From IMG/VR virus record IMGVR_UViG_3300017971_000186: 47,312 nt of DNA; one strand, given 5' to 3'. A program made the translations under genes and the position numbers. The stretch's first letter is position 1; every line of letters begins with the position of its first letter. The DNA comes from a virus. Lineage: Duplodnaviria; Heunggongvirae; Uroviricota; Caudoviricetes. Shown here piece after piece: positions 866 through 16,556 of this stretch. Under the pieces are notes generated by a model. The model had not been told where the DNA came from, made no database searches, and saw only the letters and a list, made by a program, of their open reading frames with translations.

Positions 866-891
866 AACTTAAACCAGACAGGAGAAAAAAC

Positions 892-1068: not shown

Positions 1069-1123
1069 TACGTAACAAAGATAATAATTAAATAACTAAC
1101 ATAAACCTTAACATGGAGGAACC

Positions 1124-1429: not shown

Positions 1430-1443
1430 TTAAATAATTAACG

Positions 1444-1461
1444 GGGGAATAACTTCCCCCA
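1444..1461 (+). terminator. GC hairpin GGGGGA-ATAACT-TCCCCC (possible terminator or SD-sequestering stem)
   Basis: 6-bp intergenic inverted repeat; weak U-tract. Confidence 0.4.
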
Positions 1462-1473
1462 TAACTTTAATGA

Positions 1474-1683
1474 TTGGAATATATTATGTTATTTTTAAGT
1501 ATATGTATAGGTGTAATAATATTATTTGGTGCTTTCAGTCTTACTATGAAGATTGAAGCAAAAAGAGAAATTAGAGAAAGATCACCAGAAGAATTGCAGT
1601 CTTTCGAGACTGCTATTAATAAAATTCAAGCTTGGAACAATGGGACATATGATCCAATGATTAGAACAGCACATAATAAATAA
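1474..1683 (+). CDS. Small protein with N-terminal hydrophobic helix
   Basis: Hydrophobic MLFLSICIGVIILFGAFSL; start may be the ATG at 1486. Confidence 0.65.
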   Translation: MEYIMLFLSICIGVIILFGAFSLTMKIEAKREIRERSPEELQSFETAINKIQAWNNGTYDPMIRTAHNK

Positions 1684-1696
1684 GGAGATACAGACT

Positions 1697-2155
1697 ATGA
1701 AAACCATTAAGAAGATCGATATACAGGCAATGAAACAAGCCGATACAATATGTTTTAGAACTGAAAACTCTATTAGTACAGTGGAGTGCTATAAAAAGAA
1801 ATCTGACGATAACCCGTTCGATAGTGATCATGTATTTAACGTAGAATCGAAACAAAGATATATAAATTATAGCTACAAAAATAAGACATACTGTTTCAGT
1901 CATCACAGTATGTATGACTTCGAATTTTGCCCGTTAAAGACTGTTATCAGTTTATTACGGGAGAATGATACTATACAGTTAGTATGGTACCAAGGTGCCG
2001 GTGATACTGAAGATCTTAAAGAAAACGGTTTTGTTTCTGATCATTTGTACATTGAAATAATCAGGAAGGATAAAGTTAAATATAACTTCCTGATTCATGT
2101 TAGTACAGGTCGGGATAATTCTGCAAGAATGATTAAACATCACAAAAGGATATAG
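1697..2155 (+). CDS. Hypothetical protein
   Basis: 152-aa ORF, AAGGAG SD. Confidence 0.75.
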   Translation: MKTIKKIDIQAMKQADTICFRTENSISTVECYKKKSDDNPFDSDHVFNVESKQRYINYSYKNKTYCFSHHSMYDFEFCPLKTVISLLRENDTIQLVWYQGAGDTEDLKENGFVSDHLYIEIIRKDKVKYNFLIHVSTGRDNSARMIKHHKRI

Positions 2156-2160
2156 ATATT

Positions 2161-2673
2161 ATGAGTAACAATGAACTATTAAGAGTATGTGAGGATAATA
2201 ACATTGAACTCACAAAAAACGGCAATAATAAAATTATCCTCACGTGCTCACAGGAGATAGATAACTCTATCAAAGATAAGATTAAAGCAATCGTTTCTGA
2301 GAACACAGAAATAACTTACCAGATAGCACCAAAAGAAAGTACATTGGATGCAATCGAAAACATGTTTAAACATCTTGATATAAACTGTAAGGTCAATTTT
2401 GATACTAAGGAACGTCATGTAATTATTAATGTCGAAAGTAAGATAAATTTATATCTCGAAGATATAGCCAATATCAGAGACAGAATTGATAAAGATGGTT
2501 ATTTCGAAACATTTGAGATTTATTTAAATGGCAACAAAGTTTCTCTTTTAGCTGAAGAGATAACTCGAAACAATAATAGTCATGAGAAGATCATTAAAGA
2601 AAGTGATATTAAGGATTTCCTCATTACTTTGAACACTGCTGAAAGCTTTGAAGATCTATTAAATAAAATATAA
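2161..2673 (+). CDS. Hypothetical protein
   Basis: 170-aa ORF abutting the previous gene. Confidence 0.75.
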   Translation: MSNNELLRVCEDNNIELTKNGNNKIILTCSQEIDNSIKDKIKAIVSENTEITYQIAPKESTLDAIENMFKHLDINCKVNFDTKERHVIINVESKINLYLEDIANIRDRIDKDGYFETFEIYLNGNKVSLLAEEITRNNNSHEKIIKESDIKDFLITLNTAESFEDLLNKI

Positions 2674-2694
2674 ACCTTATCGGGGGAATTAACT

Positions 2695-3003
2695 ATGACT
2701 ATAAAGACATTGAAAGATTTAATTAACTCTGAAGAATATCAGATTTATGCAAGTGAAACTGTACACAGTATACAAGATCATTGCATTAATCCTAATCAAT
2801 ACGATACCGATGTAGATACTATGGAAGAACACAACGAAAACGGTATGTGGGGAGTGACTCATAATGATACTATCCAGAACTGGAGAGATTATTTAAATAA
2901 TGTTCTCGACCTGGATGAGGAAATTACTGAAGCCATTGAAAAAGAAATTGATGAATGCGAACAATGGCACATTGATAATGAATCAATCGAAGATATAATA
3001 TAA
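2695..3003 (+). CDS. Acidic hypothetical protein
   Basis: 102-aa ORF, GGGGG SD. Confidence 0.75.
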   Translation: MTIKTLKDLINSEEYQIYASETVHSIQDHCINPNQYDTDVDTMEEHNENGMWGVTHNDTIQNWRDYLNNVLDLDEEITEAIEKEIDECEQWHIDNESIEDII

Positions 3004-3010
3004 CGAAGGA

Positions 3011-3499
3011 GTGAATAACATGAAAATAACATTAGGTACAGTTAGTCATGCAACAATGAAACCAGAAGATCTTATCCCGTGTTTCTTAGATCTTCTGAAA
3101 GAACTGGATGAAAATAACGAGTATACTTCAGTTATTGCTGAAGGTGAAAAGATCATTAAATATAACGAAGAAAAAGAAGATCTTAATATTCCAGAGGACA
3201 AAGATTTAGACTGGGACAGTGAGAACGTTTCAGAATATCTCAATGAAGATCTTTGGAATGCACTTGATTCTTTTGCTCCGCCATATTGTTACTTCGGTGC
3301 CCATCCCGGTGATGGTTCCGATTACGGTTACTGGCCGTGTGACTTAGATGATATTGATTTCGACGGTATTAAAGTTTCAGACTTGTCTGAAGTCCCTGAT
3401 AACTATACCGGTGAATTGTTCTTAGTGAATGATCACGGTAACGTGACCTTTTACGAAGTTAAAGACGGTGAGACTAAAGAAATCTGGAGCATTGTATAA
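3011..3499 (+). CDS. Conserved phage-type hypothetical protein (FGAHPGDGSDYGYW motif)
   Basis: 162-aa ORF with AAGGAG SD (start may be ATG 3020); the motif resembles a family I recall from large phages, unverified. Confidence 0.75.
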   Translation: MNNMKITLGTVSHATMKPEDLIPCFLDLLKELDENNEYTSVIAEGEKIIKYNEEKEDLNIPEDKDLDWDSENVSEYLNEDLWNALDSFAPPYCYFGAHPGDGSDYGYWPCDLDDIDFDGIKVSDLSEVPDNYTGELFLVNDHGNVTFYEVKDGETKEIWSIV

Positions 3500-3688
3500 A
3501 TGATTGCTTTCCCTTCTCCCCCTGTCTGCACTACTTCATGGTCTGAATATTCATGGTCTGAATATATCAGATTACATGGTGTAGAGACTGAACCTGAATA
3601 TATAAATAGTTCTTTCGGTCTCTGGAAGAAAACAGGCCAGACTGATAATAAAGGCAATGCTCTTTATAGTCTGGTCAATCCCTCATAG
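3500..3688 (+). CDS. Small hypothetical protein with SWSEY tandem duplication
   Basis: Abuts the previous stop; 15-bp tandem repeat TCATGGTCTGAATAT at 3536-3565. Confidence 0.5.
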   Translation: MIAFPSPPVCTTSWSEYSWSEYIRLHGVETEPEYINSSFGLWKKTGQTDNKGNALYSLVNPS

Positions 3689-3765
3689 TAAATAAAAAAC
3701 CCAAATAACTATAATAGCTGACTTTAATAAGTTAGTGGAACCCTTATCATGAAAGGAGTCTTTCA

Positions 3766-4896
3766 ATGGCTCATAATTTATTTACAGCAAAAAACGGTTT
3801 AGTATCGGCTGCATATGCCATAGATGAACATGGTTTACCGTGGCATGAACTAGGACAAATGGTCAATCATGCAATGACCTGGAAAGAAGCTTATGAACTG
3901 GCTCAATTAGATTGGACGGTCGAAAAAAGGCCGTTATTCTTTAAGAATCCTTTATGGAAACCTGGAAGCACTGTACCTAAAGGATATGTTTTCCCGAATC
4001 AATTTGGTATCTTTCGTTCCGATTTAACTGGTAAGGAAAGCGCCCTTGGTATCGTAGGTAATACCTATGAACCTACGCAAAATATTGAAATCGGTGGATG
4101 GATTGATAATGTCTTAGAACAGATTGATGGTGCACATTATGAAGCTGCCGGAGTTTTAGGACGTGGAGAACGTGTCTGGGCTTTGGCCCGTGTCCCCTTT
4201 AACGCTTCCATCGGAAATGATAAACACGAAACATTTATCATGTTTATGAGTGCTCATGATGGAACTATGAGTAATACAATTATGCTCACCGATGTACGGG
4301 TAGTATGTCAGAACACTTTGAATTTTGCCTTATCTAAAGGCACTAAGGATGCAATGATTAAAGTAAGACATACCAAAGGTGCTAAAGAGAAACTTAATAA
4401 AATAACCACTGAGATTCAAACCGGATTAAAACAGGATATAAATTCTCTTAAAGAAAAGTTTGAAAAGATTATTACTCATAAAGTTACCAAAGAACTTTTT
4501 GCACAGACTATGACTCGTATCTTTGGTGAGAAATGGGAACAATCAGATAAGAAATCTGATAAAGCCCTTGAGATAGCTAAACTATTTAATGATAATGATG
4601 ATAATGCTATCCCGGAACAAGCTGGAACGGGTATGGCTTTGGTGAATGCTGTTACTAATTACGTGGATCATAAAAGACCTAGTAGAGTAACATCTACGTC
4701 TGGATATACTACTCAAGAACAAGCCCGTGCCGATAGTGCGTGGGTAGGTAGTGGTGCTCAATTAAAATCCAATGCTCTCGAAACTGTATTGGAATTAATT
4801 GAATCTCCTGAAGAGACTTCACATAATCCTAATCCTACAGTTCAAATGAAAGAAAAGAATGAAACCCTTGATAAGATCTTAGATCTTGTTGGTTAA
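3766..4896 (+). CDS. DUF932 / TIGR03299 phage-plasmid-like protein
   Basis: PWHELG, LDWTVEK, LGIVGNTYEPTQN, AGVLGRGERVW, HDGT and VRVVCQNTL match the DUF932 signature motifs; AAGGAG SD. Confidence 0.88.
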   Translation: MAHNLFTAKNGLVSAAYAIDEHGLPWHELGQMVNHAMTWKEAYELAQLDWTVEKRPLFFKNPLWKPGSTVPKGYVFPNQFGIFRSDLTGKESALGIVGNTYEPTQNIEIGGWIDNVLEQIDGAHYEAAGVLGRGERVWALARVPFNASIGNDKHETFIMFMSAHDGTMSNTIMLTDVRVVCQNTLNFALSKGTKDAMIKVRHTKGAKEKLNKITTEIQTGLKQDINSLKEKFEKIITHKVTKELFAQTMTRIFGEKWEQSDKKSDKALEIAKLFNDNDDNAIPEQAGTGMALVNAVTNYVDHKRPSRVTSTSGYTTQEQARADSAWVGSGAQLKSNALETVLELIESPEETSHNPNPTVQMKEKNETLDKILDLVG

Positions 4897-4900
4897 TATA

Positions 4901-4973
4901 TAACTCTGGCCGGTAGAGAGATAGGAACTCTCTACTGGGGGGACTTATCGATACCATAAGAGTTGAGAGTCCC
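4901..4973 (+). ncRNA. Candidate structured intergenic RNA
   Basis: 11-bp hairpin 4910-4938 plus alternative pairings 4902-07/4959-64 and 4940-45/4968-73. Confidence 0.35.
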
Positions 4974-5028
4974 GAAAAAGTATCGATAATAAATAACATA
5001 TCATAAATAATAAATATGGAGGTATCCA

Positions 5029-5583
5029 ATGAATACTAATGATCTTTTAAATTCTACACTTGATTTAATCAATGATGAAAATAGAACTATCGTTTTAACC
5101 TTCGTTAAAAAAGTTATCATTCCTGCAATGGTTCAAGAGAAGATGAATACTTCTAAACCTGAACAGAAAGAACTTAAAACACCAGTACAAACCACTTTGG
5201 AACTTCCAACTAAATCTGTATCTGAGAAAACAGATAAAGAACTCGACCCCCGTATCCCTAAAGGATCTAAGAACGGGCACAAGATTGAAAAGAAACGCAG
5301 TCTGGAAGATTGGGAGAAAGATTTAATGAGACAGGAGTTTATCGCTCTTAATGGAGAGATACACGAAGATGCCTGTCTGGAAATTAAAGATAAGTTATCT
5401 AGTAAGACTGCAATCTTCCAGGTTACCGGATTTATTTCACTGCTTCATAAGTATGTGAAGAAAGGTGAGATTGAACTTCGTGATATGGAAAGTTACTATG
5501 AATTTCAGAGACAAAAGAAGTCTGGAGTCAAGAAAAAGAAGAAAACTAATATCATAACGATAAGGAGAAGTAACAATGCCTAG
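5029..5583 (+). CDS. Hypothetical protein with basic C-terminus
   Basis: 184-aa ORF, GGAGG SD. Confidence 0.75.
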   Translation: MNTNDLLNSTLDLINDENRTIVLTFVKKVIIPAMVQEKMNTSKPEQKELKTPVQTTLELPTKSVSEKTDKELDPRIPKGSKNGHKIEKKRSLEDWEKDLMRQEFIALNGEIHEDACLEIKDKLSSKTAIFQVTGFISLLHKYVKKGEIELRDMESYYEFQRQKKSGVKKKKKTNIITIRRSNNA

Positions 5584-5809
5584 AGAATGTCCGGTTAATG
5601 GTAGTATATGTAATAAACTTGGAAATGATACCACTCAAAATGGTTCAATTTGTCGCAGTTGTGAACACCACGATTACCGAAAGATTAAATCTAACCTTGA
5701 AATATGCCCAGTAGATTATGGCATTGCTTGTGATAGACTTGGACGTGGTGGAACTTGTGAAGATAATTGTTATACCCAGTCTGGAGGTAAATCATGTATG
5801 AATATTTAA
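5576..5809 (+). CDS. Cys-rich small protein with two CPV-x3/4-C repeats
   Basis: AAGGAG SD; ECPVNGSICNKLG and ICPVDYGIACDRLG. Confidence 0.6.
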   Translation: MPRECPVNGSICNKLGNDTTQNGSICRSCEHHDYRKIKSNLEICPVDYGIACDRLGRGGTCEDNCYTQSGGKSCMNI

Positions 5810-6051
5810 CATGCTGTGTTGCAAGCACAGCAGAACTTATTAACGATATGACTGATAACGGAAGAAAGATAACAGCCAATACTTTCTTTAAACACGTCTC
5901 CCTCCAAGAAGTCAATGAACAGTTTGGATATACAGGAACGTGCATCCCTAGTATTAAAAAAGACTGGCATGTAGCGTACTATAAAAGTACTTATGACGGT
6001 CAAAGATGCTATTATCTTGTACATTCCGCTATAGAATATATCTATGTCTAA
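5794..6051 (+). CDS. Conserved phage-type hypothetical protein
   Basis: GGAGG SD; 85 aa, YEYLTCCV...WHVAYYKS. Confidence 0.75.
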   Translation: MYEYLTCCVASTAELINDMTDNGRKITANTFFKHVSLQEVNEQFGYTGTCIPSIKKDWHVAYYKSTYDGQRCYYLVHSAIEYIYV

Positions 6052-6054
6052 TAA

Positions 6055-6135
6055 AATGGAGTGGTCTAAATCACCGCCATTTGTATCGATTCTCCCAGAG
6101 ACAGCCCCGGTAAATCCGGGGATGACCACCCCATT
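6055..6135 (+). ncRNA. Candidate structured RNA element, copy 1 (P1 stem enclosing CCCCGG-N5-CCGGGG)
   Basis: 6055-65 pairs with 6125-35; inner hairpin 6105-6121; homologous element at 30861-30922. Confidence 0.45.
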
Positions 6136-6206
6136 ATATATAAAATATATCTAAGTCAAATCATTCCAGTTAATTATATTTAATAAAAGAGAGGTATTGA
6201 GGTATT

Positions 6207-6776
6207 ATGGAAACTATAAAATATAAAAACTACACAATTGAAATTCATGTTGATGAAGATCCCTTGAACCCTAGAACAGAATGGGATAATTTTGGATCAA
6301 TGGTATCTAAACATAGACGCTACGACTTCAATGATAAAGGCGCACCATATGACGTCGATTCGATACCCTTTGAGGACGTTATCTATCTACCCCTGTATCT
6401 ATATGATCACAGTGGTTTAACCATGAATACGACTGGCTTTGACTGTCCTTGGGACAGTGGTCAAGTCGGTTGGATCTACGTAGAGAAAAGCAAAGCCCTG
6501 TCTGAATTTAATTGGACAGAACTTAATGAAGAACGTATCGAAAAGATTAAAGATATTCTTCGGTCTGAAGTTGAGACCTATGACTGTCTATTAACAGATG
6601 CTGTCTACGGATACATTGTTAAAAATAAAGATGGTGAAGAGATCCACTCTTGCTGGGGCTTCTTTGGATATGATCATGAAAAGAGTGGGTTACTACCCGA
6701 TACTCGAAGCATTATTGATCACGATATAGACCATATTGAAAAAACTGAAGGTATTCAACAAGAATTAAAACTCTAA
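6207..6776 (+). CDS. Conserved phage/ICE-type hypothetical protein (LYLYDHSG...WDSGQVGWI)
   Basis: 189-aa ORF, GAGG SD; motif recalled from widespread mobile-element proteins. Confidence 0.78.
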   Translation: METIKYKNYTIEIHVDEDPLNPRTEWDNFGSMVSKHRRYDFNDKGAPYDVDSIPFEDVIYLPLYLYDHSGLTMNTTGFDCPWDSGQVGWIYVEKSKALSEFNWTELNEERIEKIKDILRSEVETYDCLLTDAVYGYIVKNKDGEEIHSCWGFFGYDHEKSGLLPDTRSIIDHDIDHIEKTEGIQQELKL

Positions 6777-6790
6777 CAGGAGATTAAATC

Positions 6791-7057
6791 ATGATAAAGA
6801 AAACTTTTAAATTTGACGGATATCATTCTAAGTTCTTAGGACGTAACGGTTCTTTTAAATGTTCCGGTCTCAGTCTGGGGCAATTTGAAAGTCCATTCGA
6901 AGGTGAAAGACCTTTCATAGAAATTAGACCTATAACAAGTAAAGGTCAACCTGGAAAATGTTTCATCGAAGTTCCTATATCTCATATGAGAGAATTAATT
7001 AATGCTCTTACTGAGATAGAAACTGAATGGATAGATAAAGAACAGGAGGGATTATGA
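6791..7057 (+). CDS. Hypothetical protein
   Basis: 88 aa, AGGAG SD. Confidence 0.7.
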   Translation: MIKKTFKFDGYHSKFLGRNGSFKCSGLSLGQFESPFEGERPFIEIRPITSKGQPGKCFIEVPISHMRELINALTEIETEWIDKEQEGL

Positions 7058-7263
7058 TTCAATGTAATCTACCCGAATCAATAGAAGTAAATGGTAAGAT
7101 ATTAAGAAAAGTAATTGGTAAATCTTATGAAGAGGCTTTGAAAGAAGCTAAACTTAATAAGAAAACTTATCGAACAGTAAAAGTCCTTCATAAGAATCTA
7201 CGTGGTAAGTTAGACCTCCACAATAAACCTTATGAACCGACAGTCTGGTTATTCACCAATTAA
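7054..7263 (+). CDS. Hypothetical protein
   Basis: ATGA-coupled to the previous gene, GGAGG SD. Confidence 0.7.
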   Translation: MIQCNLPESIEVNGKILRKVIGKSYEEALKEAKLNKKTYRTVKVLHKNLRGKLDLHNKPYEPTVWLFTN

Positions 7264-7276
7264 CCTGGAGATTATT

Positions 7277-7750
7277 ATGACTATTAAAAGAAAGACTCCC
7301 ATAACAGTTTATAAAGATGGATCAATTAATTTTCAATGCTCCTCTGAATTATACGGAACCACCGATGCCGGAGGCAAAGCCATACACGCTCTTAAGTCTG
7401 GCTTTGTCCCCCTTGGGGACGGGTGTGATTATATCCTTACTAAAAAGGATAAGAAAGATATCTTGGATCAATTAGATATGACCTGGAAAAAATTATTACA
7501 AGAAATGTTTAATATTCCAGAGGAGAACATGAATAATTATTGTTCTGACCTACATATCCTTTTCTCTGAAGAAGTCTGGAAGTGGTTGATGGATAACTAT
7601 GAGTTTCCTCAGAATATTAAGGTTCAATTAAGTAATGTTAAAGGCCAGTCTTGGTATGGGAAACAATTTATTGAGATTCCTTTTGTTTATACAGAATATC
7701 ATACAAAACGAAAGGATTATATTAAATCTTTAAATACCTCGAAAGGTTAG
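7277..7750 (+). CDS. Hypothetical protein
   Basis: ORF track 7232..7750; ATG 7277 follows GGAG and avoids overlap. Confidence 0.7.
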   Translation: MTIKRKTPITVYKDGSINFQCSSELYGTTDAGGKAIHALKSGFVPLGDGCDYILTKKDKKDILDQLDMTWKKLLQEMFNIPEENMNNYCSDLHILFSEEVWKWLMDNYEFPQNIKVQLSNVKGQSWYGKQFIEIPFVYTEYHTKRKDYIKSLNTSKG

Positions 7751-7779
7751 ACTTAAATAAATAATTAAATTTTTTTCTT

Positions 7780-7808
7780 ATCACTTTCTTTCCTAAATCT
7801 CGTATAAT
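7780..7808 (+). promoter_or_regulatory. Putative promoter, -10 TATAAT at 7803-7808 preceded by ATCTCG
   Basis: ATCTCGTATAATAT is identical to the promoter at 38206-38219; -35 poor. Confidence 0.5.
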
Positions 7809-7847
7809 ATATGATACCGAACCGTAATCTTTAAAAGGATATTCATT

Positions 7848-9146
7848 ATGAAGAAAGTACCTGAAAAACTAAAAAACATATTAAAAGAACCATTCGTAAA
7901 AACTCTTATTAACAGGTCTCAGGATGTAGATTATGAGACCTTAGTTAAAAGTCTTATTCCCGATATATTCAGTAAAAATCCTACAACAGTCTGTGATGCT
8001 GAAGGTAATTATACCGGAACTACTCTCGATCTTCAGTCTGCAATGTATAACTTTATGTCACGTAATGCCGTGATCAATATATCTAAGTACCATGCCATGA
8101 GAGGCACAGTCTTAAAAGATGGACAGCACCTTGTCTCAAAAGAAAATAGACACGGTAAAGTCGTTGGCCTTTCTTGTGCTAAAGATCTTTGGTCTTTTGG
8201 TATGAGAATAGTTGATGTTAATATCATGAAGTTCGATGATACCGGAGACTTCCGAGTCTTTAATGTTGTAGGTGTAGACGGTGAATGGTATGAAGGTTGG
8301 GAACGTATAGAGTTCATGCCCACTGCAAAAGAGAACGAGTTCTTTATTAAACTAGCTTCCAATGGAAAGATAACCTTTAATAATTTTATAGCTCCTCAAA
8401 GAAGATTTAATATCTTCTCCTCTAATTACTTTGTAATTAAAATAGCCCTAGCCCGTCTGGAAGATGAAATACAATATCTTGGTGGACTTATTAAACTTAT
8501 GAACGATAAAGGTATTGTCTTACCTCCCGAAGAGAAAAAGGAATGGCCTGAAACTACTAAACTTGGTAACGAGAAAAAAATTAAAATTAAATCAGTCACC
8601 TATGAAGTAGATATTCCTCCCTTGGTCGGGGAATATGCTATGATGCCCCTTAACCAAGATACTCTAGTAGAAGTCGTTAAAAGAAAGAAATGGCTAACAT
8701 ATAAGATCAAATCTCAATTACAGTTCTATATTCGTGGTGAAGAATACGCCAACTTTAGATATGCCAATCCTGATAAACCTTTCCCGCACTGGATGAAAGG
8801 TGTTGAATGGAAAGAATATAAATCACCTAAGAAGTTTACTGTTAATGCTAACTTCTTAAAGAAATTTGATGGTAATGAAAGATCTATCCTTAATCTTATG
8901 AAAGAAAGATCTTATAAAGAAAATGAAAAGAATCAATTCTATGCAGAATATGAATTTCTTAATAAGCTCCTCTTTGGTATTTCTGAAATCCCCGATTCTG
9001 TCAGAGATAAAGTGAAATTCTCAAAAGGCAGAACTAAATATGAACGTCTATTAATCTTTCAACCAGACGTAGGCATGTATGGTATCTCATTATTAAAAAA
9101 GGAATTTGAGAAAACTGAAACAGTTAATGAGAACTATAACGTGTAA
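7848..9146 (+). CDS. Hypothetical protein (432 aa)
   Basis: Long ORF, AAGGA SD; no family recognised. Confidence 0.85.
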   Translation: MKKVPEKLKNILKEPFVKTLINRSQDVDYETLVKSLIPDIFSKNPTTVCDAEGNYTGTTLDLQSAMYNFMSRNAVINISKYHAMRGTVLKDGQHLVSKENRHGKVVGLSCAKDLWSFGMRIVDVNIMKFDDTGDFRVFNVVGVDGEWYEGWERIEFMPTAKENEFFIKLASNGKITFNNFIAPQRRFNIFSSNYFVIKIALARLEDEIQYLGGLIKLMNDKGIVLPPEEKKEWPETTKLGNEKKIKIKSVTYEVDIPPLVGEYAMMPLNQDTLVEVVKRKKWLTYKIKSQLQFYIRGEEYANFRYANPDKPFPHWMKGVEWKEYKSPKKFTVNANFLKKFDGNERSILNLMKERSYKENEKNQFYAEYEFLNKLLFGISEIPDSVRDKVKFSKGRTKYERLLIFQPDVGMYGISLLKKEFEKTETVNENYNV

Positions 9147-9175
9147 TTTATTATAAAGTGTTGGAAATATTAAAG

Positions 9176-9204
9176 TTGACTTTTTGGTTGATTCAGGATA
9201 TATT
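9176..9204 (+). promoter_or_regulatory. sigma70-type promoter TTGACT-N17-TATATT
   Basis: -35 at 9176-81, 17-bp spacer, -10 at 9199-9204. Confidence 0.55.
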
Positions 9205-9210
9205 AAGTAG

Positions 9211-9300
9211 ATAAAGGGTGACACCCTCTTTTGAGGGCGTTCCTTTATTTGTGTTAATGCGCCCCCTCGGTTTTCAGCTTCCAGGGGGCGCAAACTATTT
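9211..9300 (+). ncRNA. Candidate small RNA with two GC-rich hairpins
   Basis: Hairpin 9211-9248; perfect 10-bp stem 9258-67/9283-92; directly after a promoter in a ~540-bp gene-poor gap. Confidence 0.5.
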
Positions 9301-9687
9301 AACTCATCATTTTCTCACAAGACGGTCTGAATGTCCTGGAGACTCGTTTATAATTTATTATAAAAGATCAAAAAAGAGTAGAAAAATATTATTATTTTTA
9401 CTTTCCAAATCTGATTTCTCAGATACAAAATAACCTCCCTAGCCCTATTTGGGGGACGGTACTTACAGTTTTCATCCCTAAGTGTTTTCAGTCTGTTATC
9501 ACAGAAAAATTCAAATTTACTTACACGCACATTGGGGTACTTAAAATTTCATTAAATTCAACAACAATTACTCGCTCAGTAAATAAATATCAATTCGAAA
9601 AATCCTCTCTCAAGATAGTATACGAGAGAGTCTTTAATATATGAATAAAATTAAGAACAATGTTACATATTAACAGGAGGTATAAGT

Positions 9688-10308
9688 ATGTATACTCCAT
9701 TAACTATCATTTCTGAAAACAAGAAAACTGGTGTCTCAATAAACTTTCCCATGAAAGGGCATTGTAGACCTAGTAAGTTATGTCAGAAACTTTGCTATGC
9801 CCGATCCGGACATATGGCTTTACCCAATACCGTGAAAAAACAGAACTATGTTTCTGATTACTTCACCGGTAATGATCTACTCAAAGTCATAGTCGAATGT
9901 AAAAACTGTCATGCAGTACGTTTAAATGGATGTGGTGATCTATTACCTGATCACGTGAATAATATTATTAACCTCGCTAATGAATGCCCTAAAACTATGT
10001 TCTATGGCATGACAAGGAAACCTGAAATAGCAAAGGTCATTAATGATCAATTACCTAATCTCAGATTATTATTAAGTATCGATGCTACAACTCCAAAGAA
10101 AGTCTGGAGTAAATTTCCAGGTAAGATGTGTTTTGGCCCTAGGAGAGACGTAGATACTGTTCCAGATGATCCCCGAATCATTATAGTATTTCCCTACCAC
10201 TGTCATGGTTCAGTAGTTAAAAACGTTCCTAAACATCCTCTGGACTGTCTTGCAGTCTGGCATGAAGTATCGGGATGTTTGGAATGTGCCCGGTGCTGGG
10301 ACTGGTAA
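9688..10308 (+). CDS. GP88-family (radical-SAM-like) phage protein
   Basis: Cx5Cx3CYA, RLNGCGD, YGMTRK and C-terminal GCxxCxxCW; GGAGG SD. Confidence 0.7.
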   Translation: MYTPLTIISENKKTGVSINFPMKGHCRPSKLCQKLCYARSGHMALPNTVKKQNYVSDYFTGNDLLKVIVECKNCHAVRLNGCGDLLPDHVNNIINLANECPKTMFYGMTRKPEIAKVINDQLPNLRLLLSIDATTPKKVWSKFPGKMCFGPRRDVDTVPDDPRIIIVFPYHCHGSVVKNVPKHPLDCLAVWHEVSGCLECARCWDW

Positions 10309-10317
10309 TGCATAGAG

Positions 10318-10346
10318 AAGCCCGACTGTCCGTAAAGGTCGGGCTT
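10318..10346 (+). terminator. 9-bp GC-rich hairpin after the GP88-like gene (terminator or processing stem)
   Basis: AAGCCCGAC/GTCGGGCTT; no U-tract. Confidence 0.45.
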
Positions 10347-10442
10347 ACTCCATGCCTTAAAGCGCGACTCAAGCACTTCTAATACGTAATATATATTTTT
10401 AACTCTACCTGTTCCAGGTAATTATAACAAGGAGAACATATA

Positions 10443-10805
10443 ATGGCATCAACATTAGTAAATCCAATGAACGAAAACGAATTAAAAGAATACGAAATTG
10501 AAATCATAAAGGATTGGTGGTATGATGGTACATGTGAGGATAAATTAGAAATACTCGATACAGTAAAAGATTATACCTGTAAAACTAATGGTAGTAAAAT
10601 CAAAAAGATCCTCGCTATTAAATGGGTACTGAAAAAGAAACAATGCCTTTTAGTAGATGGTGTATTACTGGATCTCTTTAGTGCCAATGTAGTTAATACG
10701 GTCTATGAATATCTTATTAATAATGATAAGAAAGACTTCTTTGTTAAACTCTTTAATACAAACATCACAACTATTATGAATCACTGTTACAAGTGTGTGA
10801 AATAA
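10443..10805 (+). CDS. Hypothetical protein
   Basis: 120 aa, AAGGAG SD. Confidence 0.75.
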   Translation: MASTLVNPMNENELKEYEIEIIKDWWYDGTCEDKLEILDTVKDYTCKTNGSKIKKILAIKWVLKKKQCLLVDGVLLDLFSANVVNTVYEYLINNDKKDFFVKLFNTNITTIMNHCYKCVK

Positions 10806-10806
10806 T

Positions 10807-11094
10807 ATGAAATTAACATGGATAAAACTCGAAAACATACTCCAAGATATGAAAAAGCATGATTTATTGTACGGTAGACAGTGGGTAATAAAAGAAGAGG
10901 CTTTAGTCTTTATAGTGAAACACTGGAAAGGATATTACCCTATTACCAAGACTACCATGATAAATACTTTTACTAAAGATTCAGAAGTACTAGAAATTAG
11001 AATAATCGACAACCAAACTATGAGTGATGAGAGATACGCTAAAGAGATACAGAAGTATACCAATAGATTTCAAATCGCTCTACAGGAGACTTAA
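10807..11094 (+). CDS. Hypothetical protein
   Basis: 95 aa, abutting. Confidence 0.7.
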   Translation: MKLTWIKLENILQDMKKHDLLYGRQWVIKEEALVFIVKHWKGYYPITKTTMINTFTKDSEVLEIRIIDNQTMSDERYAKEIQKYTNRFQIALQET

Positions 11095-11096
11095 CT

Positions 11097-11402
11097 ATGA
11101 ATAACAAAACTAAAGTGATCTTCCGTTTCTGGAAAATATCAAACGAAGTAATAGCTATCTTCCCCGAAGAACCCGGAAATACTAATCCTATGACCTGTTC
11201 GTCTTATGAACATATAGGCCAACACGGAGCCTGTAACCCTTACGGGATCATTCAGGAAAGTAGATTAGCTACTCCCGAAGAATATAAAGATCTTAAAGAA
11301 GAACTAGAAAGCATTGGTTATGATCTAACCATTATAAAAAGACATAGATATCACCATCTCGAAAAGAGAAGAGAAATTATAGTGTCTGGAGGATTATCAT
11401 GA
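11097..11402 (+). CDS. Conserved phage-type hypothetical protein (VIFR...AIFP...YEHIGQHG)
   Basis: 101 aa, AGGAG SD. Confidence 0.75.
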   Translation: MNNKTKVIFRFWKISNEVIAIFPEEPGNTNPMTCSSYEHIGQHGACNPYGIIQESRLATPEEYKDLKEELESIGYDLTIIKRHRYHHLEKRREIIVSGGLS

Positions 11403-12055
11403 GAACAACTAAAATCGAAACTTGGTGTCCTCTCTTTCCAGGGTTCTATAATACCCTGTATGATCTGGATACAGATAAAGTATTAGAAGGTTATAATGAA
11501 AATGACGATTGGCATCATGAAGAAAGAAAAGAAAAAGGATACAGTCTGGATGAAGAAATCGAATATGATGATCTTGAAATCGATAACGAAGGATATGAAA
11601 AAGCCCTCGCTAAAATCTTTGTTGAATTTGTAGAAAAGAAATTAAAACCATATGTTGTTAAAATAAATCTACAAAATGTATCATCCCCTAAACAGTATAA
11701 CTATGAAAACGACTCGATAAATATTGAAGTAGAAATTGATCTTGAAGCTATCAAAAAATTCTTTGAGAATAAAGAAGTCCTTAAATCTTATTCTACTTTC
11801 TTAAAAGCTATCTATACTAGCTGTGACGGTTTCATCTCATCCTATAGTAATGATGTAGATGTCTGGTTAGAAGATATCAAAAGATTACCAGACATAGAAA
11901 ACATTGAACATAAAATGGGAAGTATCCTAGAATTTATTCTGGAGTATGAAAAGGAACTTGTTCCAAGTGATGACGACCTAGAAATATACAATGCAGTAAC
12001 AGAACTTATTTCTGCAAGTGAATTCTGTTCACTCAAACAAAAAGAAGAGGAATAA
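11399..12055 (+). CDS. Acidic conserved phage-type hypothetical protein (FPGFY...SPKQYNY)
   Basis: 218 aa, ATGA-coupled, GGAGG SD. Confidence 0.78.
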   Translation: MRTTKIETWCPLFPGFYNTLYDLDTDKVLEGYNENDDWHHEERKEKGYSLDEEIEYDDLEIDNEGYEKALAKIFVEFVEKKLKPYVVKINLQNVSSPKQYNYENDSINIEVEIDLEAIKKFFENKEVLKSYSTFLKAIYTSCDGFISSYSNDVDVWLEDIKRLPDIENIEHKMGSILEFILEYEKELVPSDDDLEIYNAVTELISASEFCSLKQKEEE

Positions 12056-12098
12056 ACTGTAGTAGATCTTGTAACTCATAAAAAAGGATATACCCATC

Positions 12099-12269
12099 AT
12101 GAAAGAAAAAATATCTACCGCACTAGGCATAATTATGATCCTGGCTATTATGGCAGGTTCTATAGGAACATTCTCATGGTCATGGACAATCGGTCCAATT
12201 ATGGGAATATGCTTTATTACCGCCATAATTCTATGTATACATGAAATAACAACCAATAGAAAGGATTAA
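12099..12269 (+). CDS. Small two-helix membrane protein (56 aa)
   Basis: Read manually: MKEKISTALGIIMILAIMAG...IMGICFITAIILCIH; AAGGA SD. Confidence 0.6.
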   Translation: MKEKISTALGIIMILAIMAGSIGTFSWSWTIGPIMGICFITAIILCIHEITTNRKD

Positions 12270-12275
12270 CAAAAA

Positions 12276-12527
12276 ATGTCAGTAAAATATACAAAAAACC
12301 CTAATAATAAATTCCCCAGAGCTACCGGTATGAATGATAGTATCTATCACTTTAAAGATACTAATATCCCAGAGACAGAAATACTGAACGACCTACGACA
12401 GTCTGGAGCTATCATATATGAATATGAATCCAGTACTGTCCTAGTAAGACTCGATAACCCTGATCAATTCATCATTAAATTTAAACAAACTAAAAGTTGT
12501 AATCTGACATCTCTTAAAAAGGATTAA
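12276..12527 (+). CDS. Hypothetical protein
   Basis: 83 aa, AAGGA SD. Confidence 0.7.
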   Translation: MSVKYTKNPNNKFPRATGMNDSIYHFKDTNIPETEILNDLRQSGAIIYEYESSTVLVRLDNPDQFIIKFKQTKSCNLTSLKKD

Positions 12528-12530
12528 ACT

Positions 12531-12902
12531 ATGTACTTATCAGAACTCAAAGGATATGAAGGAACAGATACAGATCTTGGTACATCTCTCTATGAATACG
12601 GTCTGGCATGGAAGTTTATAAAGAAAGAAAATGAATATCGATTCTACTATAAAGTTAATGTTGCAGAAAAAGCAAACGATTGTGTATTTGATTGGGCCAC
12701 TGTAAATGCTGATATAGATTTTTGGGAAGAATATGATTGGGTCTCTAAAAATGACCTACTTAGTTTCCTGGGATTAACAGAGAATGAATTTAACAAGTTA
12801 CCTCTCCCTGTTAAAATCAGTGACCTAGTTAGTCATTCTGGATTCGAAAATGTCTTTGGTAGTTGTTATAATTCTTTCTCTATCACAACTAACCAGTATT
12901 AA
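12531..12902 (+). CDS. Hypothetical protein (cassette 1)
   Basis: 123 aa; SD supplied by the repeat. Confidence 0.75.
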   Translation: MYLSELKGYEGTDTDLGTSLYEYGLAWKFIKKENEYRFYYKVNVAEKANDCVFDWATVNADIDFWEEYDWVSKNDLLSFLGLTENEFNKLPLPVKISDLVSHSGFENVFGSCYNSFSITTNQY

Positions 12903-12936
12903 ATGACAATCTGACATCTCTTAAAAAGGAAATATT

Positions 12937-13194
12937 ATGAAATATCAAAACTTACTTAATCGATACAATAATTTAGAAAAAGAAATTAAAGAAGCATTAA
13001 AAACTGAGATCAATAAAAGTAAGACCAAATCAAAACATATCGATAGTAACGCTATCAAAGTAAATGTATTTGATTATGAGGAACTAGTAATAATTAATTC
13101 CAAATTAACTTTTTTGGATGCAGAAGGTCTACATTATTCAATTTATTGTGAATGTGAATTAACTGACTTAATTGATATCCTTAAGAACATATAA
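12937..13194 (+). CDS. Hypothetical protein (cassette 2)
   Basis: 85 aa; SD supplied by the repeat. Confidence 0.75.
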   Translation: MKYQNLLNRYNNLEKEIKEALKTEINKSKTKSKHIDSNAIKVNVFDYEELVIINSKLTFLDAEGLHYSIYCECELTDLIDILKNI

Positions 13195-13248
13195 ATCAAA
13201 AGAAACTAAAAGTTATAATCTGACATCTCTTAAAAAGGATTAACCAAT

Positions 13249-13542
13249 ATGGATTATCAAGAATTAAGATTTGTATATAGTCATACCGGATTCCTTAAGA
13301 ACATATATAAATCAAAAAAGACTAACCGATACTATGCCCTGCAATGGGATAACGGATATAGTCAATATCCCCACTTCTATTCAGCCACAAAAGATGGCGA
13401 AGCCGATTGCCCAATCAAGAAAGAAGCTATCCAATACTTCATATTCCCGGAAGGCCATGAACACTATGGAGAGATCCTAAAAGAAAGTGTAAGAGCTGAA
13501 TTATTATTAAAGAGCTTAAAGGAGAAAAAGGAAAATGAATAA
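13249..13542 (+). CDS. Hypothetical protein (cassette 3)
   Basis: 97 aa; SD supplied by the repeat. Confidence 0.75.
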   Translation: MDYQELRFVYSHTGFLKNIYKSKKTNRYYALQWDNGYSQYPHFYSATKDGEADCPIKKEAIQYFIFPEGHEHYGEILKESVRAELLLKSLKEKKENE

Positions 13543-13756
13543 TAAAATTGTTAAAGCCCGTAGGACTCTGACCGCCATAGGTAAGAAATACGGTCTCACA
13601 TTTGATAAGAAGCATCATTACTATACAGGGAATGCTTATGTGAATAATAAAGGTGAAACTTTACCTACTGTATTCAGAGAAGGAACTGATGAGTATAAAC
13701 TTCAATACATAGATGGATGTTTTCACCCATTCCTCGTACAGAATAACCAGGAGTAA
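13535..13756 (+). CDS. Hypothetical protein
   Basis: 73 aa, AAGGA SD. Confidence 0.7.
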   Translation: MNNKIVKARRTLTAIGKKYGLTFDKKHHYYTGNAYVNNKGETLPTVFREGTDEYKLQYIDGCFHPFLVQNNQE

Positions 13757-13762
13757 AAATTT

Positions 13763-14086
13763 ATGAAGATCCAAAACCAAGATTTAATCATTAAAAGAGT
13801 TACTTTCACATCTTCATCCTTAAAAGAGATCATGATAAAACATAAACAATTAAACGAAGATGGTTATAAAATAGTCGAAGTCAATCTTACCAATGATGGG
13901 TGTGAAGGTGTACTGGAAAAAGAATTATCCATAGCAGATTACATCAAACAAAATCCTAAACTCGAAACTGAAGATCCCGACTTTCCTATGAAAGAATGGA
14001 GACTCGCTGTCTCTAATGAGGAGACCCGTCTGGGTTATGATAGCTGGGTGACTCATCAAAAAGAACAACATAATATCAGAAAATGA
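13763..14086 (+). CDS. Hypothetical protein
   Basis: 107 aa, AGGAG SD. Confidence 0.7.
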   Translation: MKIQNQDLIIKRVTFTSSSLKEIMIKHKQLNEDGYKIVEVNLTNDGCEGVLEKELSIADYIKQNPKLETEDPDFPMKEWRLAVSNEETRLGYDSWVTHQKEQHNIRK

Positions 14087-14277
14087 ATAAACAGAAATAC
14101 AAAATTGAGTATACTGATTCCAAGAATAAATTAACCAAAGTTTTCTTTGTAGACCGACCATTTAACTCTGCATTGAAACAGGCAAAAACATTTATCAAAC
14201 GAAATACTCACTTAAATATTAAACTGCTTTATAAAAATTGGAGTAGCAAATATAACTTTGGTTGGAAACAAACCTAA
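14083..14277 (+). CDS. Hypothetical protein
   Basis: 64 aa, ATGA-coupled. Confidence 0.6.
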   Translation: MNKQKYKIEYTDSKNKLTKVFFVDRPFNSALKQAKTFIKRNTHLNIKLLYKNWSSKYNFGWKQT

Positions 14278-14291
14278 ACCTGGAGGTAGCA

Positions 14292-14459
14292 ATGGCTCGT
14301 TATTATAATATTACTATTCATAGAAGAATTAAAGTACAAGATCCTTTACCCGATAACTGTACTATTGAAACTCTTGAGGACGAAATCTCTGTTGAATATC
14401 CTTTCGATGTTGAAGAAATCGATGGAGAAGTATCTGCAAACCTAGAAGATTCGGACTAG
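14292..14459 (+). CDS. Small acidic hypothetical protein
   Basis: ORF track 14262..14459; ATG 14292 follows GGAGGT. Confidence 0.65.
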   Translation: MARYYNITIHRRIKVQDPLPDNCTIETLEDEISVEYPFDVEEIDGEVSANLEDSD

Positions 14460-14460
14460 T

Positions 14461-14545
14461 TCAGTCTGGAAATCCCGTTCCCCAAATCAGTCTGGAAATT
14501 CAGCCTGGATTTCAGTCTAAAATAGTCAGAATCGACTTGTCTGGT
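14461..14545 (+). repeat. Intergenic cluster of CAGTCTGGAAAT-like motifs
   Basis: CAGTCTGGAAAT at 14462 and 14488, CAGCCTGGAT at 14501, CAGTCTAAAAT at 14513, GTCTGG at 14539. Confidence 0.85.
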
Positions 14546-14583
14546 AAAACTTAAATCAGTGTCCCCCAATCAAGGAGAGAATT

Positions 14584-14844
14584 ATGCCAGAAATCAAAAG
14601 AATCAATAACCAATTGTATGGGATTGAGCAATTTGGTGCACCTGGAAGCTTATCAACCCCGACTATTGCCGGAGTTCATTTCAATCCCGGTGAATTAACC
14701 AAGAAAGAACGTGAACATGCCAGAGCAGTCGCCTGTGTATCTTTTATCAGACTTATCTGGTATGCTCAGGAAATGAATAAATCAAACTGTTCATATAAAC
14801 AAGCAGTAATAACCGTTAACAAACGTATCAAGGAGTTAAACTAA
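14584..14844 (+). CDS. Hypothetical protein
   Basis: 86 aa, AAGGAG SD. Confidence 0.7.
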   Translation: MPEIKRINNQLYGIEQFGAPGSLSTPTIAGVHFNPGELTKKEREHARAVACVSFIRLIWYAQEMNKSNCSYKQAVITVNKRIKELN

Positions 14845-14978
14845 TGACTGGATGGTGGAATTTAACCTTCTCTGGAGTTGATGAACTCAACGATCTTGAT
14901 AGAGAACACATAGCAGAACTTATTAAAGAAGGATATACTTCTGGTGAAATCATACACCACGAAGATGAAGAAGAATAA
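14844..14978 (+). CDS. Small acidic protein (44 aa)
   Basis: Read manually: MTGWWNLTFSG...EHIAELIKEGYTSGEI; TAATG-coupled, AAGGAG SD. Confidence 0.6.
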   Translation: MTGWWNLTFSGVDELNDLDREHIAELIKEGYTSGEIIHHEDEEE

Positions 14979-14984
14979 ACCTGT

Positions 14985-15034
14985 TTTAAGCCTGTCTGGA
15001 ACTGAGAGGTAGCTGAATACCTCTTCAGTCTGGA
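14985..15034 (+). ncRNA. Candidate hairpin element, copy A
   Basis: TTTAAGCCTGTCT leader plus 40-nt hairpin containing ATACCTCT; homologue at 18780-18829. Confidence 0.45.
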
Positions 15035-15070
15035 TATGGCCTGAAAACCTATTTAAACGTACAATGAGAG

Positions 15071-15262
15071 GTGATTATGAAATTACAAGGATGGATCATA
15101 ATAAATAAAGATAAAAAATTCGCATGGGATGATAACACAGAGTTCTATACTGACTTTAATATAGCCAGCATACGTACAGTAGAACTCACACAAGGTACTG
15201 AACCTGGAACTCAGTTTGAAGTAGTTCCCGCTACCCTTACCTGTGAGGCATTGAGAGACTAA
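15071..15262 (+). CDS. Hypothetical protein
   Basis: 63 aa, GAGG SD. Confidence 0.65.
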   Translation: MIMKLQGWIIINKDKKFAWDDNTEFYTDFNIASIRTVELTQGTEPGTQFEVVPATLTCEALRD

Positions 15263-15513
15263 TGCATATCACAAGTATAGATCAAATAAACATGAATGAA
15301 CTTCCCATAGAAGTTCAGAACGAAATTAAATCAGCCGATAGCCTAGAGTTCCGTGGATTACACGGTGTCCAGGAAATCCTGGGACGTGGAGACTCAAAGA
15401 TCATTTTCTGTCTGGCAGTAACATATAAAATTCTATCCAAGTCATTCCAGGTCTGGAGCTACGGATCAGATAAATGGCAATGGTCTTGGATGAGTGGACT
15501 AAGACCGTCTTAG
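15262..15513 (+). CDS. Hypothetical protein
   Basis: 83 aa, TAATG-coupled. Confidence 0.65.
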   Translation: MHITSIDQINMNELPIEVQNEIKSADSLEFRGLHGVQEILGRGDSKIIFCLAVTYKILSKSFQVWSYGSDKWQWSWMSGLRPS

Positions 15514-15638
15514 GTCTTTCCCCCAGTCTGGCCAGAAACAGTCTGGAATCGCCCCTGTCTGAGTTCCCAGTCTGGAAATATCAAATTTAGGGGTAACCCC
15601 CCTCGTTTTTAACCCCACTTTTGATAGTCGGGAACCAG

Positions 15639-15716
15639 TTTCCCCAAGTCAAATACCCAAATGAGCAAGTGAAATTATTCTTCTCTACAGTCAACAACCA
15701 ATTTCCCCAAGTCAAA
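15639..15716. repeat. 15-bp direct repeat TTTCCCCAAGTCAAA x2
   Basis: 15639-53 and 15702-16. Confidence 0.9.
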
Positions 15717-15887
15717 GACTCGGTTTGGGAAGACATTAACTTACTTTGATCAGTCAATTACCCTGTGTAAATTTACTTATACAGATAACAAAAGATTATT
15801 AATATATGATTGTAGGAACTAGGAAATCGGTTCCGGGTTTTGCAGGGAGAATAAATTTTTTCAAAATACTCGTTGGAAATTCCCGAC

Positions 15888-16033
15888 ATAGTTCCTGGTA
15901 TTGACTTACCCATTATTCTATTCAAGGTAATGGGTAAGTACTCAAGTTTTCCCTGACATAGTTCCGAGTTCATAGTTCATGATGGTATAGTTCCTGGTAC
16001 TGACTTACTCATTATTCTATTCAAGGTAATGGG
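15888..16033. repeat. 47-bp direct repeat x2 (2 mismatches) overlapping a 12-bp inverted repeat
   Basis: 15888-15934 and 15987-16033; ACTTACCCATTA/TAATGGGTAAGT at 15904-15/15928-39. Confidence 0.9.
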
Positions 16034-16147
16034 CATACTGATACATATTAATTTTCTCTTACAGAGTTATTATATGGATAGGATACAGATATACTTAATG
16101 GATAGTTTATAGGTTATTAGATATAGGGGATAGGGATAATTACATTC

Positions 16148-16167
16148 ATATTACTAATTAGTAATAT
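16148..16167. repeat. Perfect 20-bp AT-rich palindrome
   Basis: ATATTACTAATTAGTAATAT. Confidence 0.9.
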
Positions 16168-16556
16168 ATAGGGGGATATGTTTATAGGTATAGACATATA
16201 GTAAGTTAATATATTAAGATAATAATGGGATTTGTATAAATCCCTTTCAGTGCCCATACATAGTTACTTAAGAAATGCCTTAAAGGGTTCCACATTTTTA
16301 TAGGTGCTATGTGTGGGTTTTTTATTATAAAGATATGGATATTGATGAGTAAGAGGATTACCTTAAAATTGTTATTTGATTTATAGATCGTGTTTATTAC
16401 TATATAGACCATAGTTTAAAGATATAGGACGACTGATTTAATAGAGATTAATACGGACGCACCATATAGGACGTTGGTATTTGATAGTATTAAAATGTTA
16501 TATTACTGGATAAAAAAGGTAATTGGGTATATATAATGTTATATGGAGGTAAGAAT

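Follow-up and report, generated by a model that had tools for sequence, protein, structure and literature searches.

The window analyzed here is a 47,312-nt stretch, the reverse complement of positions 4462–51773 of a single 469,617-bp contig, IMG/VR record IMGVR_UViG_3300017971_000186 (Caudoviricetes); the contig is ∼34% GC, is classed as a complete virus record, and has ends that overlap by 58 bp, closing it as a circle. All coordinates below follow the window orientation. Nearly all open reading frames (ORFs) in the window lie on the + strand, and ∼35 small ones form a module (∼250–15600) between two non-coding regions, X1 (−1000 to +256) and X2 (15604–16535). Within this module the hexamer GTCTGG recurs on one strand as a dense field that stops at a terminator-like hairpin (Table 1), and this field, which may be an array of Chi-like sites beside a DNA end, is the subject of the present analysis.

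GTCTGG was counted by exact scan of both strands in the window and the whole genome, and likewise in related contigs. The scan returned the same 30 + strand copies that an initial annotation, made by eye, had reported between 3669 and 15575 and, also as reported, no copy on either strand to the right of the field in the window. The reverse strand holds seven copies (661, 762, 776, 874, 3637, 9063, and 11888; all <12 kb), close to the six or so estimated for the first 16 kb; their nonrandom placement had been missed, as four sit within 220 bp at 661–879, and only about 4e-5 such windows are expected genome-wide. The background had been put too low, at one copy per 15 kb rather than about one per 10 kb per strand. 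The window total of 37 copies compares with 9.6 ± 3.1 in dinucleotide shuffles and was reached in 0 of 100 shuffles. Genome-wide there are 71 + and 54 − copies, 30 of the 71 (42%) lying within 12 kb, or 2.6% of the genome; the strand ratio is 30:3 inside the field, and outside it the word occurs at chance level with no strand bias. Copies beyond the first 16 kb (n = 88) are scattered over both strands and do not have the flanking CA. No other 6-mer is as strongly enriched in the field over the remaining genome as GTCTGG (30 copies against 1.1 expected, p = 2.7e-32), an enrichment of ∼25-fold, and the 8-mer CAGTCTGG has 13 copies here against two in the other 457 kb. In a sliding k-mer scan of the whole genome, this was the only dispersed field not due to protein or tandem repeats.

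Besides the 100 dinucleotide shuffles, the nulls comprised synonymous shuffling within genes (2000 trials), codon permutation, and local Markov models. The coding copies, 22 in number, are read as V-W, as x-L-x with the rare CTG codon, and as S-G, and exceed both the synonymous null (5.0 ± 1.9, maximum 13) and codon permutation (2.0 ± 1.4). The excess is not a coding by-product, and amino acid use does not explain the field, as the initial annotation had concluded from the use of all three frames; its proposed comparison of strand-specific k-mer density with codon-shuffled nulls likewise left the field unique and in excess. One-mismatch variants of GTCTGG in the field are at background, and the six-base core is therefore strict, with a looser preference in the flanks of the 30 copies for C at −2 (19/30) and for A at both −1 and +1 (18/30 each). 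To the right of the field there are no copies on either strand over 35.7 kb, where 5–6 are expected from local composition. This void, spanning 15576–47312 and continuing to ∼51279 (genome coordinates), reflects either avoidance or chance (P about 0.003–0.006).

Density within the field rises toward its right end, where the last 1.1 kb holds 10 copies, one third of the total, the other 20 being spread over the next 11 kb leftward. The eight intergenic copies are all confined to gaps at 14.46–15.6 kb that total ∼0.3 kb; farther left, from 3.6 to 14.4 kb, ∼1.4 kb of intergenic sequence contains none. Both terminal arrays carry an extended form, TTCAGTCTGGAAAT, at 13/26-bp spacing, and the first of them is found again in two relatives, L077 and L081, which also keep the boundary hairpin. 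The stable post-gene hairpin at 14985–15034 has a twin outside the field at 18780–18829, in which the leader is the same and GTCTGG is missing. Toward the left, 0.9–3.5 kb is free of the word, and the four reverse copies at 661–879 lie antisense in + strand genes, beside X1. With this reverse cluster at the left edge and + copies dense at the right, the module carries outward-pointing copies at both edges, few on the left and many on the right.

Table 1. Coordinates of the GTCTGG field, its edges, and genes of the module and its surroundings.
Feature	Position	Strand	Description
GTCTGG field	3669–15575	+	30 exact copies, consensus (C)(A)GTCTGG(A); 22 in genes (all three frames), 8 intergenic
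X1 non-coding region	1–256, extending ∼1 kb left of window	.	∼1.25 kb, repeat region
Reverse cluster	661–879	−	4 GTCTGG in 220 bp, pointing to left module edge
Inverted pair CCAGAC...GTCTGG	3637–3674	.	Left start of field; similar pairs/hairpins in L081, L083, L084, L085
DUF932 (PF06067) gene	3766–4896	+	Field begins about one gene upstream in every field-bearing relative
189-aa protein gene, phrog_6186	6207–6776	+	In 4/4 field-bearing genomes
Intergenic array upstream of 86-aa gene	14464–14544	+	3 exact copies and 2 one-off (GCCTGG, GTCTAA)
86-aa gene	14584–14844	+	Dense arrays on either side; present in field-bearing relatives
Post-gene hairpin	14985–15034	+	Stable, z = −4.3; GTCTGG in each arm
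Last array	15526–15575	+	3 exact copies and GTCTGA; after last gene, directly before boundary hairpin
Boundary hairpin	15589–15603	+	GC-rich AGGGGTAACCCCCCT then T run, terminator-like; sharp right limit of field
X2 non-coding region	15604–16535	.	∼0.9 kb, repeat-rich; blocks GAACCAGTTTCCCCAAGTCAA and TCAAAAGATTATTAAT conserved
FtsK/SpoIIIE motor	38234–39418		Encoded in window, 23 kb from field

The two non-coding regions that fence the module are both rich in repeats. In X1, a 14-bp unit, GTTCCCTGTGCTC(A/G), is repeated ∼18 times in tandem, ATATGCGCCAC occurs three times, a 78-bp repeat is present in four to five copies, and one patch is G-rich; X2 holds a 47-bp repeat and a switch from C-rich to G-rich sequence. 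The two share the rare 13-mer CCAATTTCCCCAA, and three of the four occurrences of TTTCCCCAA on this strand genome-wide lie in X1/X2. The suggestion that the field leads to the origin gained no support: the genome-wide cumulative GC-skew minimum lies in X1, ∼400 bp left of the window start, and not at 15.6–16.5 kb, and a gene-strand switch is also located in X1. X1 is for this reason the better candidate for an origin or regulatory hub, and X2 may represent a DNA end, a pac site, or a regulatory region. A scan for sigma-70-type promoters over 1–18 kb gave no signal above shuffles.

Relatives were obtained as metagenomic contigs reached via homologs of the DUF932 protein and showing the same gene order. 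Close relatives were absent from IMG/VR and the JGI metagenomes, whether sought with single proteins or by DUF932 alignment (best 40% identity) or with the conserved boundary block as query, and the first gene to the right of the 15.6–16.5 kb gap had no homologs. The field is present in three of the metagenomic relatives, at 21+/5− (L077), 21+/4− (L081), and 12+/3− (L084), its consensus again being (C)(A)GTCTGG(A); it starts about one gene before DUF932 and ends in a dense last-kilobase cluster as in the window. The L077 and L081 contigs extend to the right boundary, where both have the hairpin and the conserved downstream blocks, whereas the L084 contig ends before it. Coding copies beat 2000 of 2000 synonymous shuffles in L077 and L081, and in L084 a single shuffle of 2000 reached the observed count. 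Relatives whose DUF932 proteins are only slightly more distant have no field: L079/L080 (5+/2−), L082 (0/2), and L085 (3/1). Among the field-bearing genomes gene content is mosaic, only about one third of the window's field genes having orthologs in L077 or L081, and the lineage-specific, non-orthologous genes of the relatives carry GTCTGG as well; about half of the orthologous GTCTGG positions are conserved, and the remainder have turned over. Because the field is kept despite this mosaicism and positional turnover, it is, on these comparisons, a property of the place that selection at the level of the DNA (or the transcript) maintains, and it is evolutionarily labile. The proposal of an oriented cis signal marking one domain of the genome thus holds up, both against codon-aware nulls and in three relatives with non-orthologous genes.

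Several other repeats and words were noted in these and other viral contigs. Hairpins or inverted pairs of CCAGAC/GTCTGG with stems of 7–15 bp recur at L083:4830–4880, L084:1–35, L085:590–625, L081:2742–2760, and 3637–3674 in the window, and thus even in relatives devoid of the field. A candidate replacement word in L079, AGTTAGGG, proved to be a local tandem repeat, and L082 yielded only weak candidates (CACAGT, 10:2); L079, a field-less relative, also has a telomere-like tandem repeat (TATTTAGTTAGGGG, ∼8 units) at 300–400, left of the syntenic module. The more distant L251, which has an 86-aa homolog, carries ∼14 near-identical sigma-70-type promoters (GTTGACAaag-N14-TATAT) at 1200–13500, together with 10 intergenic TAGCAA-N5-CGTGCCA sites that group within one non-coding gap and directly before promoters and look like the promoter/operator system of an early module. 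Among DUF932-bearing IMG/VR phages, GGTTAGCA occurs 13–18 times on one strand in L139, L140, and L125, always intergenic and about once per gene, within a long consensus (a T run, cgGTTAGCAaa, then tct ∼15 nt downstream) that looks like a phage-specific promoter. Other such phages have one-strand dispersed words, TGATCC at 24:0 in 11 kb of L124 (mostly genic) and TAAGCG at 16:0 in 13 kb of L109, which are possible further Chi-like or reader-specific fields. Paired GTCTGG copies were found at 76 loci in viral contigs; GTCTGG-rich loci among viral contigs were rejected as fields, being coding tandem repeats (S-V-W-x in L063/L076, Gly/Ser-rich in L018/L036/L038). Those at L063:11678–12571 and L076:2428–3531 (− strand) encode S-V-W-x tetrapeptide runs (DSVWNSVWSSVW...) from 12-bp repeats, TTCAGTCTGGAx.

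Two small genes of the module accompany the field, and neither protein could be retained as a GTCTGG reader, no DNA-binding family or fold having been found for either or for any other module protein tested. In all three field-less genomes (3/3), unrelated genes stand in place of the 189-aa phrog_6186 gene. Its model is confident, with a predicted local distance difference test (pLDDT) score of 95, yet gave no Foldseek match and no clear match to a solved structure; the best VIA-align hits (Z 7.1 over ∼60 residues) were small inhibitors, e.g., the AcrIF24 N-terminus and T7 Gp1.2. The phrog_6186 family comprises 8,594 clusters at 50% identity and has invariant D, H-S-G, and W-D-S-G motifs. The 86-aa protein had no family match and modeled poorly (pLDDT 63). 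In the FtsK/SpoIIIE-like protein only the alpha and motor domains were found, the gamma/winged-helix domain was not detectable, and its C-terminal 94 residues and the next two ORFs matched nothing even at E ≤ 1. Genes of plasmid or integrative and conjugative element (ICE) flavor lie downstream of the field at 45414–46421, 43793–45355, and 38234–39418 (DUF3150, an AAA ATPase, and the gamma-less FtsK/SpoIIIE motor), and DUF932 within the field is of the same flavor. Searches with PF03237 and PF17289 found no terminase large subunit.

The closest parallels to the field come from Chi. Chi is a short asymmetric word read by a RecBCD/AddAB-type helicase-nuclease on the strand that ends 3′ at a DNA break, and its recognition turns the enzyme from degradation to RecA loading. 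GTCTGG is short, asymmetric, over-represented, and strict in its core, and its + strand orientation is the one read by a RecBCD-type enzyme entering from the right. In the lambdoid Escherichia coli phage LLS, 20 of 23 Chi sites have the orientation that RecBCD recognizes when it enters from the right end, near which they cluster (Zheng et al., 2025, PMC12315714); in the lambdoid Pseudomonas aeruginosa phage MD8, 32 of 32 Pseudomonas Chi sites lie on the right-end-read strand and are likewise clustered; and P1, with 50 Chi sites, depends on RecBCD/RecA for recombination between its terminal repeats (PMC12315714). As in these phages, the most enriched oligomer here is short and asymmetric, lies almost entirely on one strand next to one, here predicted, genome end, in the orientation read by an enzyme coming from that end, and occurs in several coding frames beyond what codon use explains. 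The differences are that in LLS, MD8, and P1 Chi is experimentally known, the host is known, and the end (cos/pac) is mapped, whereas here the Chi word and the end are predictions from sequence, and that the present field occupies only 2.6% of a 470-kb genome in a phage with its own RecA-like gene.

Counts made in this analysis on GenBank records extend the comparison to annotated terminal repeats. Staphylococcus phage K has 20 copies of the S. aureus Chi GAAGCGG (13+/7−) in its 8,486-bp terminal repeat and 0 in the next 21.5 kb, with tight inverted pairs at 403/436, 4595/4615, and 6235/6246. The Pectobacterium jumbo phage vB_PcaM_CBB (378 kb) has 7+/2− copies of GCTGGTGG in its 22,456-bp terminal repeat and 3 in the next 27.5 kb, the + copies lying in the right 60% of the repeat and one − copy near its left end; like the module, this repeat consists of small + strand genes (∼52) including a DUF932 gene. 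The module resembles both repeats in its small co-oriented early-type genes, non-coding bounds, sharp drop outside, presence of both orientations with an excess of +, and inverted pairs, and differs in a higher density (2.5 per kb, for a 6-mer) and in the spatial separation of the two orientations, with the reverse copies at the left edge. The K and CBB repeats are annotated and their host Chi is known, whereas the module is judged from its sequence, and tblastn of module proteins against the CBB or K terminal repeats gave no similarity at E ≤ 1e-3. With its small co-oriented genes fenced by non-coding repeats, the module also resembles the 10–20 kb of early genes in T5 first-step-transfer DNA and the SPO1 host-takeover module, for both of which terminal redundancy and first entry have been demonstrated, features that would at most be inferred for the module.

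Because the geometry of the field matches that in LLS, MD8, and P1, and the module has the make-up, polarity logic, and sharp drop of the K and CBB repeats, GTCTGG is read here as a Chi-like array for a host RecBCD/AddAB-type nuclease, set in an end-proximal early module that is probably a long terminal repeat, a reading that we give about an even chance of being correct. The active form of the word is probably (C)AGTCTGG(A). Under this reading, the word would be packed into an early-gene module adjoining an exposed DNA end, most likely in the gap at 15.6–16.5 kb, and the module would be the long direct terminal repeat of the phage (∼15–16 kb), collapsed into the circle by assembly. A nuclease entering at the right end and moving left would pass 10 copies in the correct orientation within 1.1 kb and then 20 over 11 kb, and one entering at the left edge would meet the four reverse copies at 661–879; the module would be protected, and recombination between the repeat copies would form circles or concatemers. 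Polarity and density gradient point to the 15.6 kb boundary and the four reverse copies to the other edge, the two predicted ends, and reverse copies at the opposite edge, beside X1, are as a terminal repeat with its two ends would require. The right edge would be explained just as well by a pac-proximal region like that of P1. We infer, rather than observe, the DNA end at the boundary, the terminal-repeat nature of the module, and the host nuclease as reader. Of the analogies offered in the initial annotation, Chi and a first-injected or end-proximal region fit best, the KOPS/SRS analogy loses ground, since no gamma domain is detectable in the phage motor and the field is confined to 12 kb, and parS-type and primase sites are unsupported.

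Several points weigh against the Chi reading. The contig closes as a circle with an overlap of only 58 bp. All 30 copies are on the sense strand of co-oriented genes, which also allows a reading at the RNA level. In the closest field-less relatives, L079 and L082, no replacement word was found, although L082 stops short of the terminal cluster. Known Chi sequences are mostly longer than the 6-bp core seen here, that of Bacillus subtilis (AGCGG) having 5. The phage also encodes its own RecA/UvsX-like, UvrD, and PDDEXK genes, and so departs from the correlation described for lambdoid phages, in which Chi richness accompanies the absence of a recombination module (PMC12315714); protection of the end would still be useful to such a phage.

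The features of the arrays would also suit a phage DNA-binding protein for which the arrays are operator, packaging, or partition sites and the genic copies are stoperator-like polar roadblocks that silence the early module. The longer consensus and 13/26-bp spacing of the terminal arrays, their position on either side of a small gene conserved in field-bearing relatives, the restriction of the word to a lineage, as expected of a co-evolving protein–site pair, and the intergenic operator-like sites in the similar module of L251 are all consistent with this explanation. It is nonetheless doubtful, as no DNA-binding fold or family was found for either small protein, a 6-bp core tolerating no mismatch is unusual for repressor sites, most copies are genic and have no extended consensus, and a roadblock of fixed polarity would be inactive at the antisense cluster. 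Stoperators, reportedly described by Brown and colleagues in 1997 as the sites of the L5 gp71 repressor in cluster A mycobacteriophages, likewise number in the tens, are asymmetric, and share one orientation with respect to transcription, some of them being genic; however, they are 13 bp long, genome-wide, mostly in short intergenic gaps, and have a known repressor, whereas GTCTGG has a 6-bp core in a local field with no repressor found, the extended consensus being present at the terminal arrays only and the genic copies sharing ∼9 weakly defined positions. The coding-strand placement of 30/30 copies, the overlap of two of them with Shine-Dalgarno sequences (GTCTGGAGG at 5779 and 11384), and the terminator-like hairpin that ends the field could instead mean that GTCTGG acts in RNA, tagging early-module sense transcripts for a RegB-like endoribonuclease or an RNA-binding protein, for shut-off or stabilization. 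T4 RegB cuts GGAG in early mRNAs, mainly at translation-initiation regions, and GTCTGG is similarly a short sense-strand word concentrated in an early-type block and sometimes in ribosome-binding sites, but only 2/30 copies are in translation-initiation regions. The field moreover covers at least four terminator-bounded units, co-oriented small genes at 0.9–3.5 kb and right of 16.5 kb are free of the word, intergenic copies occur only at the right edge rather than across all untranslated gaps, and no significant RNA structure was found in the arrays except one hairpin; the reverse-strand cluster and inverted pairs would also be left unexplained, and an RNA tag is accordingly judged unlikely. 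Promoters of a phage or host RNA polymerase were rejected, as 22/30 copies are genic at all relative positions, in contrast to the polar words of L139/L140 and L251, which are intergenic and have a long flanking consensus.

It is rather unlikely that a machine specified by the phage, not the host Chi enzyme, reads the word as a new kind of oriented phage DNA signal, the candidate readers being one of the small proteins that co-occur with the field or the FtsK-type motor, which lacks a gamma domain, together with its three membrane-anchored partner genes; such a machine would give direction to one 12–15-kb domain, e.g., by pulling, pausing, or handing over the first-entering DNA. More remote is a replication or translocation signal, whether primase sites (with primer AGUCUGG made from template 5′-CCAGACTG-3′), a polar fork barrier by an origin at 15.6–16.5 kb, or guides of the kind used by DNA motors. 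FtsK orienting polar sequences (KOPS), SpoIIIE recognition sequences (SRS), and the clt TraB recognition sequences (clt-TRS) of Streptomyces are likewise short and polar and guide a DNA motor, and the resemblance extends to the FtsK-family motor encoded 23 kb from the field; the gap itself is rich in repeats and switches locally from C-rich to G-rich sequence, and the flanking C-A preference would fit a primase cryptic base plus an initiating purine. Those words, however, are mirrored around their target over long range and read by a gamma/winged-helix domain, whereas this field is one-sided, with 0 copies on either strand in the 35.7 kb to its right, and no such domain is detectable in the phage motor. 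The field also takes up no more than 12 kb of the 470-kb genome, the skew minimum falls at the window start rather than the gap, and primase sites would be needed genome-wide, yet the word elsewhere is at chance on both strands, so that a role of this kind is quite improbable. That there is no signal, and the field is a by-product of composition, codon use, or a foreign origin of the block, is scarcely credible. The block does have slightly higher GC (0.34–0.38) and lower GC skew than its right neighbor, and 5 copies rather than 2 are expected once its amino acid sequence is taken into account, but the coding copies exceed every synonymous shuffle here, as in L077 and L081, eight copies are non-coding, one-mismatch neighbors are unenriched, and non-orthologous genes carry the word; a compositional artefact is excluded.

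The use of Chi to guard a DNA end is known from other phages, and (CA)GTCTGG is most probably a new example of it; with the principle already published, the field would be a useful new example rather than a new mechanism. Literature searches for the word itself returned primers only, and a host search with a secreted 686-aa protein in a genome contig collection gave a single weak match, to an archaeal metagenome-assembled genome. Were a phage-specified machine the reader, the word would represent a new kind of phage-encoded oriented DNA signal. If the Chi reading is correct, the phage sequence alone would give the predicted Chi-type word, (CA)GTCTGG, of the end-processing nuclease of a marine-sediment host, and would show where the physical ends or the terminal repeat lie in a 470-kb phage. 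The word could then be used as a marker for host prediction, as the host chromosome should be rich in and skewed for (CA)GTCTGG, and the borrowing of host Chi to guard an exposed end would extend from lambdoid phages and P1 to huge phages.

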